A stretch of 64,000 nt of DNA from a virus: IMG/VR virus record IMGVR_UViG_3300047160_000733; one strand, given 5' to 3'. The translations under genes and the position numbers were made by a program. The notes beneath the pieces were generated by a model. The model made no database searches. It was not told where the DNA came from and saw only the letters and a program-made list of their open reading frames with translations. Shown here piece after piece: positions 2,441 through 55,619 of this stretch; the stretch's first letter is position 1, and the number at the start of each line of letters is the position of its first letter.

Positions 2441-2735
2441 ATTTTTGTTGCTCCTGCTCATCATAATAACGGTTATCAATAATGTTTTCTATGTATTCCT
2501 GAGATCCGGATCTGTGGTACAACACAAAACCGCCGCGCTCTCTGATCTGCTCAAGTAGCCCAACACCTAGCAGATCGTTTAATGCTCCTTCCTCTCGCGT
2601 TGTGTATGTCTCCCTATATATCCGGTATTCAACGTAATGGTAAATACTCATTTTTCTTTTGTCCGAAAATAAGCGCGCCGCCTTGTAAATCGCCACCATC
2701 ACGGCGGCGGTTATGATGAAATAAGTGATCCCCAT
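2421..2735 (-). CDS. hypothetical membrane-anchored protein
   Basis: N-terminal hydrophobic helix (MGITYFIITAAVMVAIYKAARLF). Confidence 0.6.
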   Translation of the reverse strand: MGITYFIITAAVMVAIYKAARLFSDKRKMSIYHYVEYRIYRETYTTREEGALNDLLGVGLLEQIRERGGFVLYHRSGSQEYIENIIDNRYYDEQEQQKYGSFNK

Positions 2736-2755
2736 TATGGCCCCTTATGGGTATT

Positions 2756-3190
2756 TTAACAGGAACTTTCGAGCGTATCAACACAATAACGGGCCACAAT
2801 TTCTACGGCAGCATAAACAAAGGTATTATAAATATAATTATCTTCTGATTTACCCCACAAAGCGATCCCGATCTCGTCGTCGGTGTAGTCTTTCAGACCT
2901 GAAAAACCTTTAACCATTTCAAACATGCTTTCGCTGATCTGCTCGGCTTCCAGTTGGAACACGGCGCGGATCGCTTTCTTGTTTTTCTTCCAAAAGGTTA
3001 CACACTCATGAGTATAACAGAACGAAACTCCGGTATTTGCTCCGTGGTTGTAAACATCATTCATGGTGTCCCGCTTCCAATCTGCCCAACCACCATGCGC
3101 CGCTGCTACGGTACGGATCAAAGGTGCGGCCTCTTCACCGTATACGTTGATCACTTGTTTCATGGTTAAAGTTGAAATAGTGGTTTTCAT
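2756..3190 (-). CDS. hypothetical protein
   Basis: 144-aa ORF with an ATG start. No motif recognised. Confidence 0.65.
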   Translation of the reverse strand: MKTTISTLTMKQVINVYGEEAAPLIRTVAAAHGGWADWKRDTMNDVYNHGANTGVSFCYTHECVTFWKKNKKAIRAVFQLEAEQISESMFEMVKGFSGLKDYTDDEIGIALWGKSEDNYIYNTFVYAAVEIVARYCVDTLESSC

Positions 3191-3285
3191 GATGTATTTC
3201 CTGTTGTGCGTTGTGCCATTGTTGGCGGTTAAATCTCTTTATCAGGTGCCTATAGTCTCATAGGCTAGGCACCTTGTAAAGTAAT

Positions 3286-3531
3286 TTATTGAGCGTTTAA
3301 AACCTGTTTCCCTTTAGCGGTAATGATTACACCGCGAATATCGAAATAGGAAGCACTCAGTGAGATTAAACCCTTCTCTAGCAATACACGTGCAACTGTG
3401 GTAACAGCGCAACCACTCATAAACCAACGATAGGTATTATTTGTTGTATCAGCCAGCATCTTTGCATCGCTGTTTAGTTGAGATAAAACGCGGGTCTGTG
3501 CGGCGGTCAATTTGATAGTGGTAGTAGTCAT
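3286..3531 (-). CDS. hypothetical protein
   Basis: 81-aa ORF downstream of promoter 3585-3613. Confidence 0.6.
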   Translation of the reverse strand: MTTTTIKLTAAQTRVLSQLNSDAKMLADTTNNTYRWFMSGCAVTTVARVLLEKGLISLSASYFDIRGVIITAKGKQVLNAQ

Positions 3532-28158: not shown

Positions 28159-28373
28159 TGCCACAGGCAGCAGCAAAGTATGTACGAGTTATGTCTCACT
28201 CAAACCTACAAACCCTGTTAGCCAACCTCAACGAAGCTCTTTTTTCTACTCAATACCGCCCGCTGGGCGGTGTATCATTGAATCCCGACGGAAAATACTA
28301 CATAACGCTATATGATGAAGCGAGCTTAATCATGGACGTCATTGAGTCGGATATTAAAAAGGGGGCTAAATGA
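28158..28373 (+). CDS. hypothetical protein
   Basis: Trimmed to the ATG at 28158 (TAATG coupling). Confidence 0.55.
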   Translation: MPQAAAKYVRVMSHSNLQTLLANLNEALFSTQYRPLGGVSLNPDGKYYITLYDEASLIMDVIESDIKKGAK

Positions 28374-29317
28374 GTGCATTTGGTGAGGGTTTGTTTGGTG
28401 GGTATAAGACGGGGCATAAAAACCCCTCGGCTACCCGTTATGTATCTGGGGGCAAAGTGGGACAACAAGTCATAGAGACAGTAGAGGACATCCTGACGTA
28501 CCCTATGATGGGTATTCCAGAACGTGGTATCACAGAGGAAACAGCTAAGCACTTTGGGATCCGTGTCAAGCTGGATGGTAAAACAGGACTTAAACATGAA
28601 GCGCACTACTTCCCGTATTATGTGGAAGGGGTATTATCCGGATTTAAGAAGCGCGACCTGACTAAGCCTAAGCAGCAAGCAGGGCACTTCTCCGTCGTAG
28701 GCTTCCAGTCGGTCCAGTGTGAACCGTTCGGTCAACACGCTGCCAACAAGACGCGAAATAAGACAGTTATCATCACAGAGGGTGAGTACGATGCAGCAAT
28801 CGTGTGGCAAGCCATGCGAGAGAACTATAAAGGACGTGATGGTAGCACTCGTAAGATCAACCCAACGGTAATCTCCGTATCCAACGGCACTTCCAATGCT
28901 GTCCGTAACTTGGGCCAGAAGAAGAACCTTAAATATGTGGAGAAGCACGAACAGATCGTATTGTGTTTTGATGCGGATAAGGCAACTGATGCGGAGAAGC
29001 AGCAGGGTATTATCAAAGGTAAAGAGGCAACAGCTCAGGTTTATTCTCTTATTCCTCAGATGCGTGTAGCTGACCTGCCAGATGATAAGGATCCGTGTGA
29101 TATGTACGGCGAAGGTATGGCTAACCAGTTGTTCTGGTCAATCATGAAACCTATCGAGTACATCCCTGACGGTTTCCGAACCTATGAGCAGATCCGTACT
29201 AAAGCTCAAGAGATCCCTGTCTTGGGCCGTCCGTGGCCTTGGCCTACCATGACCAAGAAGACTCTGGGCCGACGTATCGGTGAGGGTTACTTCATTGGTG
29301 CTGGTGTAAAAATGGGT
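28370..29317 (+). CDS. primase-helicase, exon 1 (TOPRIM primase domain plus first half of Walker A)
   Basis: TOPRIM motifs IITEGEYDAA and VLCFDADKATDAE...DPCDMY. Ends ...GYFIGAGVKMG at 29317. The unspliced frame adds only WHTSPCKTV* (to 29347). No N-terminal Cys4 zinc finger seen. Confidence 0.75.
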
Positions 29318-30041
29318 TGGCATACTAGCCCATGTAAAACTGTGTGAACTCAGGGGAAGTCTAGAACAGACAATCCTGATCCAAGCCTCTCAACCTCCTA
29401 GATAAGGAGGTGGCTATGAAAAGAATTATAGGGTTTGAAAACTACATATTGTCTCGGAATGGTGTTGTTTATCGTAAAGGTAAAGCACTTAAACCAGATA
29501 AGAATAGTGTAGGATACCGGAGAGTATCTTTGTCGAAAGACGGAAAAGTCACACGTAGATTCATCCATCAGTTGGTGGCTGAACACTATGTTGACAACCC
29601 TAACAATCTGCCATACGTCAATCACATTGACGGTGACAGAGAGAATAACTTTGCGAACAACCTTGAATGGGTTACTCCAAAACAAAACGTTGACGATGGA
29701 TGGCGACGTGGAAGAAGAAACCCAAACAGGTACAGTGATACAATGGAACTTGCAGTGATGGCCCTTGTTGACTCAGGTATGCAACAAAAGCTAATAGCTG
29801 AACATTTTGGAATCCATAGAGATACTGTTAGAATGATAACGCAGAGGTTGAGAGGAAGGAGCAACGACTATCGAAAGGGTAAGCGAAAGCTGAGTAACCG
29901 AGTAGAGTAGGGCCAAGCGGTCCGAAGCGCACAGCACTGGTGACAGTGATGATATAGTCTGGTCTGCATGGGGACATGCAGCAGCACCGACAATAGCCAA
30001 CGGTGCGGGGATGGGAGTAGCGAACCATCCTGAACACAACG
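29318..30041 (+). mobile_element. group I intron carrying an HNH homing-endonuclease ORF
   Basis: Exon ATGGGT (29312-29317) can pair with GCCCAT (29328-29333), giving a U-G wobble at the 5' splice site. The last intron nucleotide, 30041, is G. Joining the exons restores GAGVKMGKSE. GC stems at 29964-29981, 29984-30006 and 30009-30030. Exact boundaries are inferred. Confidence 0.7.
29416..29910 (+). CDS. HNH homing endonuclease (I-HmuI/HNH_3-like) with C-terminal HTH
   Basis: ATG at 29416 behind AAGGAGG, which is sequestered in the hairpin CCTCC-TAGATAA-GGAGG. Motifs: IGFENYILSRNG (NUMOD4-like), VNHIDGDRENNFANNLEWVTPKQN (HNH), IAEHFGIHRDTVRMI (HTH). Confidence 0.85.
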   Translation: MKRIIGFENYILSRNGVVYRKGKALKPDKNSVGYRRVSLSKDGKVTRRFIHQLVAEHYVDNPNNLPYVNHIDGDRENNFANNLEWVTPKQNVDDGWRRGRRNPNRYSDTMELAVMALVDSGMQQKLIAEHFGIHRDTVRMITQRLRGRSNDYRKGKRKLSNRVE

Positions 30042-31088
30042 AAGAGTGAATGGCTTAACCAGCTTATTGAGCACATCGTCAAGATAGAGAAGACGAAGGT
30101 TGCTTGCTTTAAGTTTGAGGAAGAGAACGAGATCACCTGTAAGAAAGTAGCGGGTAAATTGTTCCACAAAGACTTCGTTAACGCCGAGAAGGTGATGATC
30201 CCCAACGAGAATGGTGATGGAGGTTATCATGACGTTTGGGGTACGGAGGTATTTGAGGGGCAACGTGGTTACTTCAAGCAGGAAGAGTTGGTGGCGGCGA
30301 CTGATGCCGTCGGTGATAATATCATCTACTATGCCAACTATGGTCGTGCGGTTTGGGACGAAGTTAAGGGCGCTATCCGTCATGCTGTATTGGTTGAAGG
30401 GGCTAAGGACGTATTTATTGACCCAATCACCCGATTAACGCAAGGTATGCAAGCGTCTGAAGCCAACGTGGAATTGGAACGATTCTCTGATGAGATCTCC
30501 AAACTTGCGAAGGAACTTGGTTTCACGTACTATTGTTTCTGTCACTTGAATAAGCCGGACAACGGTAAACCTCATGAGTTTGGTGGACAAGTTCAATCAG
30601 CTCAGTTTGCGGGTAGCCGTGCGATGATGCGTAACACTTACTACATGGTTGGGATCGAGCGTAACAAGGATCCTAAGTTATCTAGTAAAGAACGTAATAC
30701 GTCGTGGTTCGTTATCCTTGATGACCGTAAGCATGGTCGTTCAGGTCGTTTCCCTGTATTCTATGATATTGATACTGGGGACTACTTGGAGCCGCCAGAA
30801 GGATTCTTGGATTCATCCTTTGATACGTTGCGTGAGTTCTATAACGCTAACCCAGAGCATGACCCAACACGTGAGTTTGATCCTTCTCAGGAGCTATCTC
30901 CGGAGCAGTCTGAGGTTGTATACACAGATCTGAAACAGGAAGATATTCCTCCTGCCGCCGAGGAAGATCAGGAAGAAGTTGAACAGACACCTTTGACTGA
31001 AGCAGAAGAACAGGCCGCTTCTTTGGCCCGTGCAGCTGCCAATACTCCTAAGGTTGATCTGGATTTTGACGACGACGTGCCTTTCTAA
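30042..31088 (+). CDS. primase-helicase, exon 2 (DnaB/T7 gp4-like helicase domain)
   Basis: Frame is open from 30021. Begins KSEWLNQLIEHIV (second half of Walker A). Walker B-like KDVFIDPITRL. H4/arginine-finger-like AGSRAMMRNTYYMVGIERNKD. Acidic tail ends DFDDDVPF. The ORF track begins at an internal TTG (30159). Confidence 0.75.
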   Translation, partial: KSEWLNQLIEHIVKIEKTKVACFKFEEENEITCKKVAGKLFHKDFVNAEKVMIPNENGDGGYHDVWGTEVFEGQRGYFKQEELVAATDAVGDNIIYYANYGRAVWDEVKGAIRHAVLVEGAKDVFIDPITRLTQGMQASEANVELERFSDEISKLAKELGFTYYCFCHLNKPDNGKPHEFGGQVQSAQFAGSRAMMRNTYYMVGIERNKDPKLSSKERNTSWFVILDDRKHGRSGRFPVFYDIDTGDYLEPPEGFLDSSFDTLREFYNANPEHDPTREFDPSQELSPEQSEVVYTDLKQEDIPPAAEEDQEEVEQTPLTEAEEQAASLARAAANTPKVDLDFDDDVPF

Positions 31089-32690: not shown

Positions 32691-35381
32691 ATGAAAGGAT
32701 TATACATATTCGATGCCGAGGCCGACGGCCTGTTGGACGATATGACTCACTTCCACTGTATCCTTTTTAAGGCTTACGGTGAGAAGAAGTTTTATCTATT
32801 CTTGGACGAGAAGCATGAGGAGTACGGCGGGGCATTACAGTACGCCAAGCAGAAAGCAGTTGGGGCGGAAGCTGAGCTGATCGTGCGGGACTTCTCTGAG
32901 GTTAACGCATTCTTGAGCACAGAACCACGGGCCATCGCTTGCCACAACATGTTTGGTTATGACCTACGAGCTTTTAAGAAGTTCTTGGGGACTAAGTACG
33001 ATATGTTTGAAGACAAGAAGTGTATGGGGATGATCAACGGGAAGCAGGTTTCTATGTTTGATACCCTGTCAATGTCTCGTACACTCTACCCTGACCGTCC
33101 TTTACCAAAAGGTTGTCCTGATCAGGTATTCGTACCTGCACTTGGGCGCAAGAAGAAGGTTGGCCCTCATGGTTTGGAAGCATGGGGTATGCGTGTTGCC
33201 AACCTGAAGGTATCCATTGACGACTGGCGCGGGCTCCCACTGTGGAAGTACGTTGACCGTTGTTGGGAAGACGTTGTAATCAACGAATTAGTTTGGCAGA
33301 GACTGGTTCAAGAGGCCTCAGGGAAAGATAACCCCGACGATAAACGCTTCTACTACGGGGATAAACCGGATCGTCTGCGAAACCAGATGATCAATTGGAA
33401 GGATTCTTTACGACGTGGTATGCTGGCAGACTACCTGATGATTGAGCAAGAGATTCAGGGTGTTTGTTTCGATGAAGAATCAGCTATCAAGCTGCGAGAT
33501 TATTGTGACAAAACAATGGCAGAGATCGAGGCAGATGTTGAACCACAGCTTCCAAAGAAGGAGTTGTCTCCATCTGCACGTCCTACGTTCCCTGCGGCAC
33601 CATTTAAAGCGGATGGGACGATCTCTACTCACGGTTGGTCATGGCTGAAGAGGTTAGATTACCCTGTTAACCAAGAGGCGTTGGATTACAAGGATCCACC
33701 TAAAACTTCGTTCAAGGCTAACGGTGAGGTATCTAAGGCGGGGGAGACTTTCTGTAATAAGGCGGGCATTACCGATCCTGAGCTCTATGCGGACTACCTG
33801 CGAGAGATGATAGATCGGGGAACCAGTCTATCACCTTTGCCTCCAGACTTGATGGAACAGGCCATACAGGACCTCAGGGACCGTAAAGAACCTTCGTTCA
33901 TGGTAGAGATGAAGATCTCCAACCAGAAAGACATCAAGGAATACCTTATCCGAGATGCAGGGTGGAAACCTACGGTTTGGCGACTGAAGGACGTAACAAA
34001 AGATCAGTTCAAGAAGCAACGTAACCAGTTCGAGATTGATGACTTGGTTAACCAATACATTGATTGGCTGGCGGAGGTGTGTCCTCATCGAGGGTTGATC
34101 TTGAAAGAACTTGGACTTACAGAGTTCCAGTTCAAAGATCGTGAGAAGATGTTTAAGTTCTTTGTCCGTAAGGCACGTGGACTACCAACCACCGCCAAGT
34201 TTAAGGATGATCGCGGACAGTTGTGTGAGAACCTTGAGAAGGTTCAGGGTGATTTGGCTAAGCAGATCGTTAAGTGGCTGTCATTACGTAACCGACGATC
34301 AGTTCTAGACCCGATGAAGGAAGATAAGGTTGATACAGGACTTCTTAATCATCCACGACTACGGATCGATGGAAAGTTACCAGCTAGGGCCAACGGTATT
34401 ACCAACACAGGACGACGTAAACACTCAATCTGTGCTAACATGCCTAAGCCTGATCCAAAGGTTTTACTTGGCAAGGAGATGCGAGCCCTCTGGGGAGTTC
34501 CAGAAGGTAAGTATCAGGTAGGTATTGATGGTTCCAACCTTGAAGGTATGATTGCAGCGTGGGGCGCTTATGAGTTCGACGGCGGCGAATACCTACGAAT
34601 CATGGAATCAGGTGATGCCCATGCCCGAAACGCGAAGGCTTATTCCATTGCAGCAGGGGTGGAGGTAACACGTAACGGCGGGAAGGGGGTAACGTATGGA
34701 ATTATGTACGGGGCCCAAGCAGCTAAGATCTCTGCAATGCTAGGCATCTCGTTGGAGAAAGCACAGGCCGTAATCGACGCATTCTGGGATAGTAACTTTG
34801 GTTTGAAAGGTCGTCGTGAAGCCCTAGAGAAGTTCTGGGAAGCAACAGGTAAGCGATTCATCTACGGTATTGATGGACGTAAGATCTGGACTCGTTCTAA
34901 GCACTCATTGTTGAATGCTTATCAGCAGAACGGCGGGGCATCTCTGTTTGACTTGGTTGGTATTTTGTTCCATTATGCTATCAAGAATAACGGGATGTAC
35001 GATGATGGTGTCCGTCGAACCATCTACTACCACGACGAGTATCAAATCGAAGTACCAGAGAAGTACAAGAAGAAGTTCTACTTTGACACACTGGAAGAGG
35101 CTGATTCCTTTGTTAAAGAGTTTAAGGCCCAAGGTAAACATCTCGACGGACATAAACACTTTAAGGTCCGTAAGGATGAGAACAAGAAAGAGGTGTTAGA
35201 TGAGAACGGCAATCCTGTACGTGACCCAGTTCTGAATGCTGACGGGAAGATTGAAATAATCTATTGCCCTGTCGGAGAACTTGTGGTTAAATGTATTGAG
35301 AAAGCAGCCAAAATGCAAGGATCCCCAGTCCACATTACGGGTGAATACTTGACAGGTTATAACTGGGCAGACTGCCACTAG
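32691..35381 (+). CDS. family-A DNA polymerase with 3'-5' exonuclease domain (T7 gp5-like)
   Basis: Exo I YIFDAEADGL, Exo II CHNMFGYDL, pol motif A GIDGSNLEGM, motif B RNGGKGVTYGIMYGA, motif C YYHDEYQIEV. Confidence 0.9.
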   Translation: MKGLYIFDAEADGLLDDMTHFHCILFKAYGEKKFYLFLDEKHEEYGGALQYAKQKAVGAEAELIVRDFSEVNAFLSTEPRAIACHNMFGYDLRAFKKFLGTKYDMFEDKKCMGMINGKQVSMFDTLSMSRTLYPDRPLPKGCPDQVFVPALGRKKKVGPHGLEAWGMRVANLKVSIDDWRGLPLWKYVDRCWEDVVINELVWQRLVQEASGKDNPDDKRFYYGDKPDRLRNQMINWKDSLRRGMLADYLMIEQEIQGVCFDEESAIKLRDYCDKTMAEIEADVEPQLPKKELSPSARPTFPAAPFKADGTISTHGWSWLKRLDYPVNQEALDYKDPPKTSFKANGEVSKAGETFCNKAGITDPELYADYLREMIDRGTSLSPLPPDLMEQAIQDLRDRKEPSFMVEMKISNQKDIKEYLIRDAGWKPTVWRLKDVTKDQFKKQRNQFEIDDLVNQYIDWLAEVCPHRGLILKELGLTEFQFKDREKMFKFFVRKARGLPTTAKFKDDRGQLCENLEKVQGDLAKQIVKWLSLRNRRSVLDPMKEDKVDTGLLNHPRLRIDGKLPARANGITNTGRRKHSICANMPKPDPKVLLGKEMRALWGVPEGKYQVGIDGSNLEGMIAAWGAYEFDGGEYLRIMESGDAHARNAKAYSIAAGVEVTRNGGKGVTYGIMYGAQAAKISAMLGISLEKAQAVIDAFWDSNFGLKGRREALEKFWEATGKRFIYGIDGRKIWTRSKHSLLNAYQQNGGASLFDLVGILFHYAIKNNGMYDDGVRRTIYYHDEYQIEVPEKYKKKFYFDTLEEADSFVKEFKAQGKHLDGHKHFKVRKDENKKEVLDENGNPVRDPVLNADGKIEIIYCPVGELVVKCIEKAAKMQGSPVHITGEYLTGYNWADCH

Positions 35382-54038: not shown

Positions 54039-55619
54039 TTATCCTAGTTGGTCAATAGTAACCCAAGTATCACCAACCTTTTTCATTGTTGGTCGTGCCC
54101 TAACAAAACCTAAGATACCTGCCCCCTTTGCACCACCCTGATAGCGGTACTGGCTTATATCGGTCATCGAGTGGCCCGCCGGAGCAAGGAATTGCAAGTA
54201 GTTAGGGTTTACTTGGTTAACTCTGGAGTTAACATCTACAGCATTACCGAAACGGACATCAGTAACTGGCAGTGCTGCCGAGTTAGGGATAACTGTTACG
54301 TTAGTAGAAGCACCTACACCAGAAATCGAACCACGGGCAGAAATAACAGCAGAACCTACCGCAATCCCGCTCACGCTACCATCAGCACCGACGGAAGCCA
54401 CTGAAGGGTTACTTGAAGACCATAAGATCTGCTCTGAGTAGTCTGTTGGGGCCGCTGTGAATACAATCTTCTGTGAACCTTCAACTTCAATGCTCGGCGG
54501 CTGGCGCAAAGTCAGAGATGTCAAAAGGACGTTGACTGTAACACCAACACGGCTGTTTAGTCCAGTAGAGATTGAAGCGATAATCTGACAGGTCCCTTTA
54601 CCACGCAGTGTTACCAGACCAGAAGTATCTACCGTTGCAACTGAAGCGTTTGTAGTTGACCAAGATACTGGGAACCCGCTGGCAATGTTGGTAGGGAGAA
54701 CGGTAGCTGTCAGTCGCTGTTGCCCGCCAATCTTGCCTGTGATAGAATCAGGGGAAACGATGATATCCGTAGGTGTTTGAGCACCAGAACCACTATCCGC
54801 CTGATCGGTCTTGATGATGAACATGGTTGCAATGTTCTTCACTCGGTTTTCAGCAGCAGTCGGAACTACACGGCTGGCATCGAATGTTACGTAAGCACCC
54901 CAGTTATCATTACCGCCAGATTTAACCTCGGCGTTCCAACGACGGTTAGATGTTTGGAATGCACCAACATACCCGTCCTGCGCTCTCCAACGGTCATAGG
55001 AAAGTGTTCCGCCAGTGATGTTACGAATAGCATCTTCCTGAGTGGAAAGGATCGCACGGTTTGGCTCTGAGTCTGTGGTGGATCCGTGGGCCCAACCACG
55101 TGGAACACGACCACGCATATCCCATAAAGTATCGCGACCAAGTGCCGAGAACAGTTTAGGGTTTTTAGCCTTATCAAACTTCTGACCATTAAGTTCCAAC
55201 CACCCTTTAGGAGGTGTTGTCGAACCCCAGAGCATCACGCCACCGATTGGTACAAGGTAATCATTCAGCCCGTTAACCTTATTGTTCATATCCTTGATGG
55301 CATCATCCAGCTTTTTCTCCATGTCATCAATTTTCTTATCTACCTCTTTGATCTTATCATCAACTACCTTTTCGAAGTCTTTGATCTTGTCATCAATTAC
55401 TTTCTCAATGGCTGGGACTTGCTCAGTTGTGATGTATCGGATCCACTGGGTGATCATGTTGAGAGTGTAGTTATATTCTTCACAGGCTGGCTTCTGTCCC
55501 TTGTCATAACCCTTCTTGAACAGGTCATCAATAGGGCGCTTCTTGTTTAATTGCCCTGTGTTAGGGAGGACATAGTTATCCCATGCCCAGATATCAAGAC
55601 CAATAAGTGGCTTTGCCAT
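54039..55619 (-). CDS. tail fibre protein (coiled coil + tail-collar + Ig-like Big_2 repeats)
   Basis: Heptads KVIDDKIKDFEKVVDDKIKEVDKKIDDMEKKLDD. Collar motif LVPIGGVMLWGSTTPPKGWLELNGQKF. Two Ig-like repeats (VSPDSITGKIGGQQRLTATVLP... and LRQPPSIEVEGSQKIVFTAAP...). Confidence 0.8.
   Translation of the reverse strand: MAKPLIGLDIWAWDNYVLPNTGQLNKKRPIDDLFKKGYDKGQKPACEEYNYTLNMITQWIRYITTEQVPAIEKVIDDKIKDFEKVVDDKIKEVDKKIDDMEKKLDDAIKDMNNKVNGLNDYLVPIGGVMLWGSTTPPKGWLELNGQKFDKAKNPKLFSALGRDTLWDMRGRVPRGWAHGSTTDSEPNRAILSTQEDAIRNITGGTLSYDRWRAQDGYVGAFQTSNRRWNAEVKSGGNDNWGAYVTFDASRVVPTAAENRVKNIATMFIIKTDQADSGSGAQTPTDIIVSPDSITGKIGGQQRLTATVLPTNIASGFPVSWSTTNASVATVDTSGLVTLRGKGTCQIIASISTGLNSRVGVTVNVLLTSLTLRQPPSIEVEGSQKIVFTAAPTDYSEQILWSSSNPSVASVGADGSVSGIAVGSAVISARGSISGVGASTNVTVIPNSAALPVTDVRFGNAVDVNSRVNQVNPNYLQFLAPAGHSMTDISQYRYQGGAKGAGILGFVRARPTMKKVGDTWVTIDQLG

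Follow-up and report, generated by a model that had tools for sequence, protein, structure and literature searches.

A putative group I intron encoding an HNH homing endonuclease in the Walker A codons of a phage primase-helicase gene

The primase-helicase gene in a 64,000-nucleotide (nt) stretch of the virus record IMGVR_UViG_3300047160_000733 (the window, to whose full length all coordinates refer) is divided inside the codons of its Walker A motif, or P-loop, by an insert that its sequence identifies as a predicted group I intron belonging to the phage IA type. The insert carries an open reading frame (ORF) for an HNH homing endonuclease, and it is very probable that intron and endonuclease together form a functional, mobile element. 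The element is of an ordinary kind in an apt place, and it is unannotated in the database records. The ORF at 28370-29347 and the open helicase frame beyond the insert are best read as one primase-helicase gene with the following parts.

28370-29317, + strand: exon 1, the TOPRIM primase half, ending GAGVKMG (the first part of Walker A); Pfam Toprim_2, 69% identical to and collinear with the primase/helicase of phage CR9
29318-30041, + strand: predicted IA-like group I intron of 724 nt that has P7.1/P7.2 and P9.1/P9.2 but lacks P2; placed by Rfam, the CR9 junction, relatives, covariation and the relative L140
30042-31088, + strand: exon 2, the SF4/DnaB-type helicase half, starting KSEWLNQL (the rest of Walker A); collinear with CR9

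A preliminary description, made from the sequence alone, had the primase ORF end in GYFIGAGVKMG followed by nine unrelated codons and a stop, and it had the helicase frame open from 30021 with no start codon before a TTG at 30159. Both readings hold. The 325-amino-acid (aa) ORF at 28370-29347, with its Pfam Toprim_2 domain, passes from ...GYFIGAGVKMG into WHTSPCKTV and a TGA stop codon. The helicase frame follows a TAG at 30018-30020 and reads RTILNTTKSEWLNQLIEHIV..., and the TTG at 30159, its first in-frame ATG, GTG or TTG, lies 39 codons beyond the junction. When 29317 is joined to 30042, as the same description proposed, Walker A is restored as GAGVKMG|KSE in a 664-aa primase/helicase. The Pfam scores of exon 2 are sub-threshold (AAA_25, 25.8 bits; DnaB_C, 16.5 bits; cut-off 27 for each). 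The spliced protein aligns over 648 residues with the uninterrupted 694-aa gp084 of Cronobacter phage CR9 at 69% identity, and the alignment is free of gaps at the junction (...GRRLGEGMFVGAGVKMGKSEWLNQLVEHII... in CR9; ...GRRIGEGYFIGAGVKMG|KSEWLNQLIEHIV... in the window). A 157-aa query spanning the junction retrieved about 40 close GenBank relatives from Certrevirus and allied Vequintavirinae, most of which are uninterrupted at the site. The preliminary description had looked to intron-less homologues to define the homing site, and the empty sites of CR9 and A73 read AAGATGGGT^AAG, within the wider flanks GGTGCCGGGGTTAAGATGGGT^AAGTCCGAG. Because the join is collinear with CR9 and the site is empty in CR9 and A73, the insert is delimited to 29318-30041. 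The predicted spliced sequence is ...AAAATGGGT|AAGAGTGAA..., and the predicted junction peptide is ...GAGVKMGKSEWLNQL..., spanning GAGVKMGKSEWLNQLIEHIVK.

The elements of the intron RNA and of the ORF within it are listed below.

29312-29333, + strand: P1, exon AUGGGU (29312-29317) with internal guide GCCCAU (29328-29333); from sequence, fold and exon-guide covariation
29340-29346, + strand: P3 5' strand, CUGUGUG, partner 29928-29934; 100% paired in 16 sequences, five of seven pairs compensatory
29350-29379, + strand: P4 (29350-29355/29374-29379) and P5 (29359-29362/29368-29371); second Rfam segment, 100% and 92% paired
29386-29397, + strand: P6 5' strand, CCUCUCAACCUC, partner 29844-29855; 12 perfect base pairs (bp), -21.2 kcal/mol
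29394-29410, + strand: hairpin CCUCC-N7-GGAGG (29394-29398/29406-29410) sequestering the Shine-Dalgarno sequence; -10.8 kcal/mol
29416-29910, + strand: HNH homing-endonuclease ORF, 164 aa, I-HmuI-like, with an N-terminal beta domain, HNH and a putative C-terminal helix-turn-helix (HTH); Pfam, PDB 1U3E and phrog_59
29844-29855, + strand: P6 3' strand, GAGGUUGAGAGG; covariation, pairing and fold
29866-29871, + strand: P7 5' strand, GACUAU (the guanosine-binding helix), partner 29954-29959; Rfam consensus AGACUA...GAUAUAGUC
within 29872-29909, + strand: P7.1, more variable
29910-29923, + strand: P7.2 hairpin, GGGCC-AAGC-GGUCC; 97-98% paired, five of five pairs covary
29928-29934, + strand: P3 3' strand, CGCACAG; covariation
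29935-29948, + strand: P8 hairpin, CACUG-GUGA-CAGUG; every pair covaries
29954-29959, + strand: P7 3' strand, AUAGUC, within the conserved GAUAUAGUC element; Rfam match and covariation set
29964-30031, + strand: P9 (29964-29981), P9.1 (29984-30006) and P9.2 (30008-30031); the minimum-free-energy fold gives all three, P9 100% paired
30041, + strand: omega G, the terminal intron guanosine, at the 3' splice site; 3' end GAACAYAACG common to relatives, with identity to L140 falling beyond it

The P1 helix proposed in the preliminary description is present as it stood there: the guide begins 10 nt downstream of the exon strand, U29317 and G29328 form the U-G wobble at the 5' splice site, and the last intron base is G30041. 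Exon and guide strands of P1 covary among relatives, in the combinations AUGCGU/GCGCAU, GCUGGU/GCCAGC and UUCGCU/GGCGAA. The two strands of P6 are 446 nt apart and close the loop that bears the HNH ORF; a GAAA loop occupies this position instead in the intron of Escherichia coli phage W70, which has no ORF. The three GC stems that had been noted after the ORF correspond to P9, P9.1 and P9.2 in the fold. All motifs of that description were recovered, and some of its coordinates were shifted by one base (the third stem spans 30008-30031 rather than 30009-30030).

The assignment to group I draws on Rfam and on covariation. At gathering thresholds, Rfam gave no match in the whole window. With permissive settings, RF00028, the gathering threshold of which is 50 bits, matched 29782-29981 over P7/J8-7/P9 (...ACGACUA..., ...GAUAUAGUCUGGUCUGCAUGGGGACAUGCAG) at 33.1 bits (E 1.8e-6), and a second piece covering P4-P6 matched 29350-29419 at 14.4 bits. 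The covariance-model scan that the preliminary description had foreseen gives these matches to core elements at scores below the threshold. The low score is attributed to the 450-nt ORF loop, which the model cannot bridge, because sibling introns devoid of an ORF pass the threshold. The ORF-less sibling in the same gene of E. coli phage W70 reaches 70.4 bits, and the DNA-polymerase intron of a Pakpunavirus, annotated as RF00028 in its GenBank record, reaches 73.3 bits; both align along the whole window intron minus the ORF loop. At E <=0.1 this locus is the sole RF00028 match in the window, and a second intron was not found there. A copy of TCAGGGGAA, the P4 5'-strand sequence, at 54748-54756 was rejected as a chance occurrence, there being no core element nearby and no Rfam signal.

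Covariation was assessed in 16 related introns, from the window, from E. coli, Erwinia, Vibrio, Klebsiella and Pseudomonas phages, and from IMG/VR contigs, which were aligned to a hand-drawn structure with the P6 loops excised by position and not by complementarity. Standard pairs occupy 89.1% of 1022 cells, whereas sliding the partners by 1-3 columns leaves 30-43%. Double-sided changes are seen in 40 of the 65 pairs, and none of 500 shuffles reached the observed values. The covariation supports P1, P3-P6, P7.2, P8 and P9. In P6, all eight aligned counted pairs covary although the strands were chosen by position. P7 is essentially invariant across the 16 sequences, with five of its six pairs never varying and 99% of cells paired. 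P9.1 and P9.2 score lower, where the automatic alignment slips by one column. The core of P3-P4-P5-P6 and P7-P3'-P8, including the P3/P7 pseudoknot, is therefore present and backed by pairing counts. The group I assignment of the preliminary description is thus borne out by the sub-threshold RF00028 match, the ORF-less siblings above threshold and the covariation across the 16 introns.

The ORF lies in the P6 loop of the intron, and the preliminary description had taken its product for an HNH homing endonuclease. The product matches I-HmuI (PDB 1U3E) with an E value of 1.7e-15 over residues 2-108, with the His and Asn residues conserved, and phrog_59, "HNH endonuclease", with an E value of 6e-43; the Pfam HNH_3 score of 25.5 bits lies above the cut-off of 24.8. 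An N-H...N...N motif is invariant in six intron-borne HNH proteins. The 1U3E alignment ends at residue 108. For the putative C-terminal HTH there is a match to phrog_3855 HTH (E 1.5e-4). The last ~22 codons of the ORF overlap P6', J6/7, P7 and P7.1. The C-terminus ...RLRGRSNDYRK...NRVE, shared with the HNH proteins of phages UPEC06 and A5-4, is conserved because the end of the ORF runs through the ribozyme core.

The burial of the HNH Shine-Dalgarno sequence in a CCTCC-N7-GGAGG hairpin, another point of the preliminary description, is reproduced. The hairpin ends 5 nt before the ATG at 29416, GGAGG is the Shine-Dalgarno sequence of the ORF, and bases of the CCUCC arm double as the tip of P6. 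An equivalent anti-Shine-Dalgarno hairpin can be discerned by eye in UPEC06, VL73, JSF38, O18-011, PaGz-1, L111 and L136. By analogy with I-TevI of the T4 td intron, the hairpin probably restrains translation of the HNH ORF and so would keep ribosomes from disrupting the ribozyme. Gibb and Edgell reportedly found in 2010 that the ribosome-binding site of I-TevI is sequestered in the T4 td intron.

The mobility of the element is apparent from its distribution and from a comparison with a diverged relative. The window comes from a common, Vequintavirinae-like phage. In a megablast search with the locus and the neighbouring DNA polymerase, no GenBank phage exceeded ~78% nucleotide identity, and the phage itself is absent from that collection. 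The exact HNH protein was found in 336 blocks of a metagenome/SRA collection; its flanks are the same in those contigs that were examined. Among four contigs that are in essence the window phage, three differ by one base across the shared stretch, and the locus in the fourth (L138) is identical apart from one additional downstream gene. A 146-kb contig, L140, represents a diverged relative of the window phage with the same intron. The upstream genes of the two are 68% identical and exon 1 is 84-90% identical; the intron reaches 98.2% (13 differences in 724 nt), and exon 2 returns to 76-84% (76% in the first 50 nt and ~82% in the rest). Overall, the exons are 82-85% identical. The drop falls at 30041/30042, the predicted 3' splice site, and this coincidence independently confirms the 3' boundary of the intron.

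All eight substitutions that separate the two ORFs are synonymous and none is non-synonymous; the HNH ORF is under purifying selection. Outside the ORF the RNA differs at five positions: a G-U pair of P7.2 becomes A-U, and the P8 loop and the P1 loop, the latter not conserved, have two changes each. Since the intron is ~98% identical and the exons ~83% identical, the element is now passing from one phage lineage to another. The lateral transfer is recent, and what entered the diverged orthologue would be a functional intron with its endonuclease. The distribution is sporadic: the intron is found in the window lineage, in L134 and in L140, and is absent from most relatives.

From the known chemistry of the group I family, the following course of events can be proposed. 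The gene would be transcribed as a single pre-mRNA, in which the intron would fold, and the 12-bp long-range P6 would bridge the 450-nt ORF loop and join the two halves of the ribozyme. Splicing would start when an external guanosine attacks after U29317, in the U-G wobble of P1; the freed exon 1 would then attack after G30041, and the joined exons would encode a bifunctional primase-helicase of 664 aa whose P-loop is intact. If it acts like I-HmuI, the HNH enzyme should nick alleles that lack the intron, close to the P-loop codons, its presumed target, and repair from the intron-bearing copy would spread the element (homing).

Several observations weigh against a functional, mobile intron. 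Splicing is a prediction for the window phage, and the Rfam score of the window itself falls short of the gathering threshold (33 vs 50). A P10 pairing with exon 2 is not convincing, a non-contiguous ACU/AGU match being all that is seen by eye; many group I introns can do without P10. A 3-bp extension of P1 in the fold is not conserved in L140, and the HTH_28 match of the endonuclease is below the Pfam cut-off (21.4 vs 25 bits). An intron-less allele was not found in the close lineage of the window phage itself; the best intact homologues are <=77% identical, and presence/absence polymorphism is seen only between more distant relatives.

The most durable of the other explanations, an improbable one nonetheless, is that the insert has lost splicing or never had it, and that a separate 325-aa primase and a helicase fragment assemble after translation, as in Aeh1 NrdA/mobE. 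There is precedent for this, as the HNH insertion CB7_245 of phage CB7 is reported to be non-splicing and the Aeh1 NrdA case is discussed with it (PMC7344957), and the sub-threshold Rfam score would accommodate it. Yet neither the primase nor the helicase piece would then have a complete Walker A, and exon 2 would lack an in-frame start codon before 30159. Moreover, the core helices are all intact and covarying, as are the U-G wobble and the terminal G, and just five of the 13 differences from L140 are located in RNA outside the ORF, where they are confined to a P7.2 pair and the P8 and P1 loops.

It is very unlikely that a free-standing HNH gene lies between naturally separate primase and helicase genes, with the RNA-like motifs arising by coincidence. 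This is how the GenBank records of UPEC06, A5-4, A7_1, W70 and KZY1 present the locus, as separate coding sequences (CDSs) with no intron feature. The orthologues, however, are single fused genes and the join is codon-exact; the W70 insert passes the Rfam threshold without any ORF, and the identity step against L140 is at the 3' splice site and not at the end of the ORF. An assembly artefact or chimera joining unrelated sequence into the gene is the least credible of all, as assemblies made independently from several samples show the same arrangement, as does a diverged genome, and no support for an artefact was found.

A functional, mobile intron is the preferred reading, and its relatives show how widely the P1 and guide module is used. 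A search of IMG/VR for relatives with the HNH protein returned no loci, and DNA patterns built on P1 and the guide (ATGGGT-N8-16-GCCCATGTAAAAC) gave matches. The module occurs in at least 119 viral-contig introns (L011-L129) in several genes, the 6-nt target being reused across unrelated host genes. Most of the upstream exons end in ...SPMG or ...GPMG, which we take to be nrdD-type sites; others end in ...TMG, ...MMG or ...KKMG.

An intron at the exact KMG|KS position of SF4 primase-helicases is present in nine other sequences. The site reads GAAQKMG|KSEVVN in the Zobellviridae phage KZY1-k141_1938105 (L130) and in contigs L083, L133 and L136, and GAGVKMG|KS... in L071, L111 and L135, the last with only the 5' junction on the contig. 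The remaining two are L134, a Vequintavirinae-like contig with the first 112 nt of the intron only, and L140. The GenBank record of KZY1 lists three "primase/helicase" CDSs, and the HNH ORF there is labelled "DNA primase/helicase". The HNH proteins of KZY1, L133 and L136, which are Zobellviridae-like genomes, are shortened to 109-113 aa and lack the C-terminal HTH region; they may be degenerating endonucleases.

A homologous intron is located 12 nt upstream, at GAG|VKMGKSE (compared with window 29306-29317), in the E. coli phages UPEC06 (L002), A5-4 (L003), A7_1 (L010) and W70 (L008), and in none of these is it annotated as an intron. The introns of this group are 89-94% identical to that of the window over P3-P6 and 78% over the 3' core. 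Their guide GCCAGC fits the exon GCUGGU, and they possess an additional P2 hairpin. The HNH proteins of UPEC06, A5-4 and A7_1 are 70-73% identical to that of the window, and the W70 copy is without an ORF. The P1 module and RNA core of the window are about equally close to the Pakpunavirus DNA-polymerase intron and to the UPEC06 intron, and the window HNH is distinctly closest to the UPEC06 group.

This 12-nt offset between homologous intron and endonuclease pairs goes a little beyond the routine. That it records the relocation of an intron or endonuclease cassette to a neighbouring site is a tentative suggestion, which we hold to be rather unlikely. Possible routes would be reverse splicing into a near-cognate NNNGGU site or an exchange of endonucleases between introns. 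The data fit either a relocation of the whole intron or an exchange of the endonuclease cassette between resident introns. Simple recombination between introns at the two sites was rejected by reasoning, as one crossover within the core would leave VKMG either duplicated or deleted. If relocation did occur, the five-codon stretch, together with the intein described below, would offer a tractable system for the study of how selfish elements gain new sites.

We also note some features of these related loci. In A7_1, GenBank places a minus-strand "hypothetical protein" at 2246-2749 over the plus-strand HNH ORF, which is probably a mis-call. In W70 a further intron with an HNH ORF interrupts the same gene farther down (~2540-3385); it splits ...FAGSRAMMR|NTYYMWGIERNKDP and has the P1 AUGCGU/GCGCAU, and its site presumably falls in helicase motif H4, which is the second hot spot of DnaB inteins. 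Erwinia phage VL73 (L004) and Vibrio phage JSF38 (L006) have an intron of the RNA family of the window, with an HNH ORF, in their primase/helicase at a site outside and upstream of the P-loop (...FVDAL|...), with a P1 of AUGCGU/GCGCAU that is one base off the pair of the window. VL73 and JSF38 are ~45-kb phages, the former classed in Autographiviridae.

The preliminary description had named the P-loop as an intein insertion point in DnaB-type helicases, and this is substantiated: DnaB intein site b lies in the P-loop (PMC4760082). An orthologue from an SRA assembly, P0097 (L142, 247-2913), found by protein search and 61% identical to the spliced product, contains a Hint and LAGLIDADG intein whose site, GAGVKIGK|S, lies one codon downstream of that of the window intron; the intein starts CFSAGT... 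and ends ...VVHN|S. Introns thus enter at two points, and an intein at a third, within five Walker A codons of one protein family.

For annotation, the essential primase-helicase should be regarded as one gene, not as a "hypothetical protein" and a truncated helicase. The same kind of unannotated intron is carried by at least five GenBank phages (UPEC06, A5-4, A7_1, W70 and KZY1-k141_1938105), whose records give separate CDSs. The locus is a clear case of homing elements converging on the part of a replication gene that is most conserved and least mutable. The finding leaves the present view of group I introns as it was. HNH group I introns in genes of replication and nucleotide metabolism are classic for T4-like and SPO1-like phages. 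No intron was found reported in the P-loop of a phage primase-helicase in the literature, of which open-access papers were covered, so that absence is unproven.

The P-loop inteins, at DnaB site b and in other ATPases, target the same motif as the window intron. They are in frame, splice as protein and are removed after translation, in contrast to the window element, which is an RNA intron. Closer in kind is the DNA-polymerase intron of Bacillus phage SPO1, which encodes the HNH nicking endonuclease I-HmuI (PDB 1U3E) and likewise resides in a phage replication gene. The endonuclease architecture is the same in the two, whereas the intron RNA and the target gene differ, and nicking by the window enzyme is a prediction.

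In Certrevirus CB7, HNH-bearing introns in terL, the DNA polymerase, nrdA and nrdB splice as judged by reverse-transcription PCR (PMC7344957). The HNH-associated group I introns of CB7 and phiTE belong to a related subfamily (Vequintavirinae) and are of the same element type as that of the window; a 39-nt core match joins the window intron and phiTE (H23). No primase/helicase intron is reported for these phages (PMC7344957), and their genes are intact at the site (H154, H159). Conversely, the neighbouring DNA polymerase gene of the window (32691-35381) is uninterrupted, unlike that of CB7.

The T4 introns in td, nrdB and nrdD/sunY (subgroup IA2) have a fold with P7.1/P7.2 and P9.1/P9.2 like that of the window intron, and in both the ORF sits in the loop of a peripheral helix. 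The window intron differs from them in its host gene, an SF4 primase-helicase, in its HNH endonuclease, where td and sunY have GIY-YIG enzymes, and in the absence of P2. The P1/guide pair AUGGGU/GCCCAUGUAAAAC of the window recurs in many viral-contig introns after ...SPMG/...GPMG. It is identical, as AUGGGU/GCCCAU, in the Pakpunavirus DNA-polymerase intron (vB_VIPPAEUMC02a, RF00028), which interrupts another gene and is either ORF-less or furnished with an unrelated ORF annotated as "endonuclease VII"; that intron is 93.5% identical to the window intron over P3-P6 and ~77% identical over P7-P9.2.

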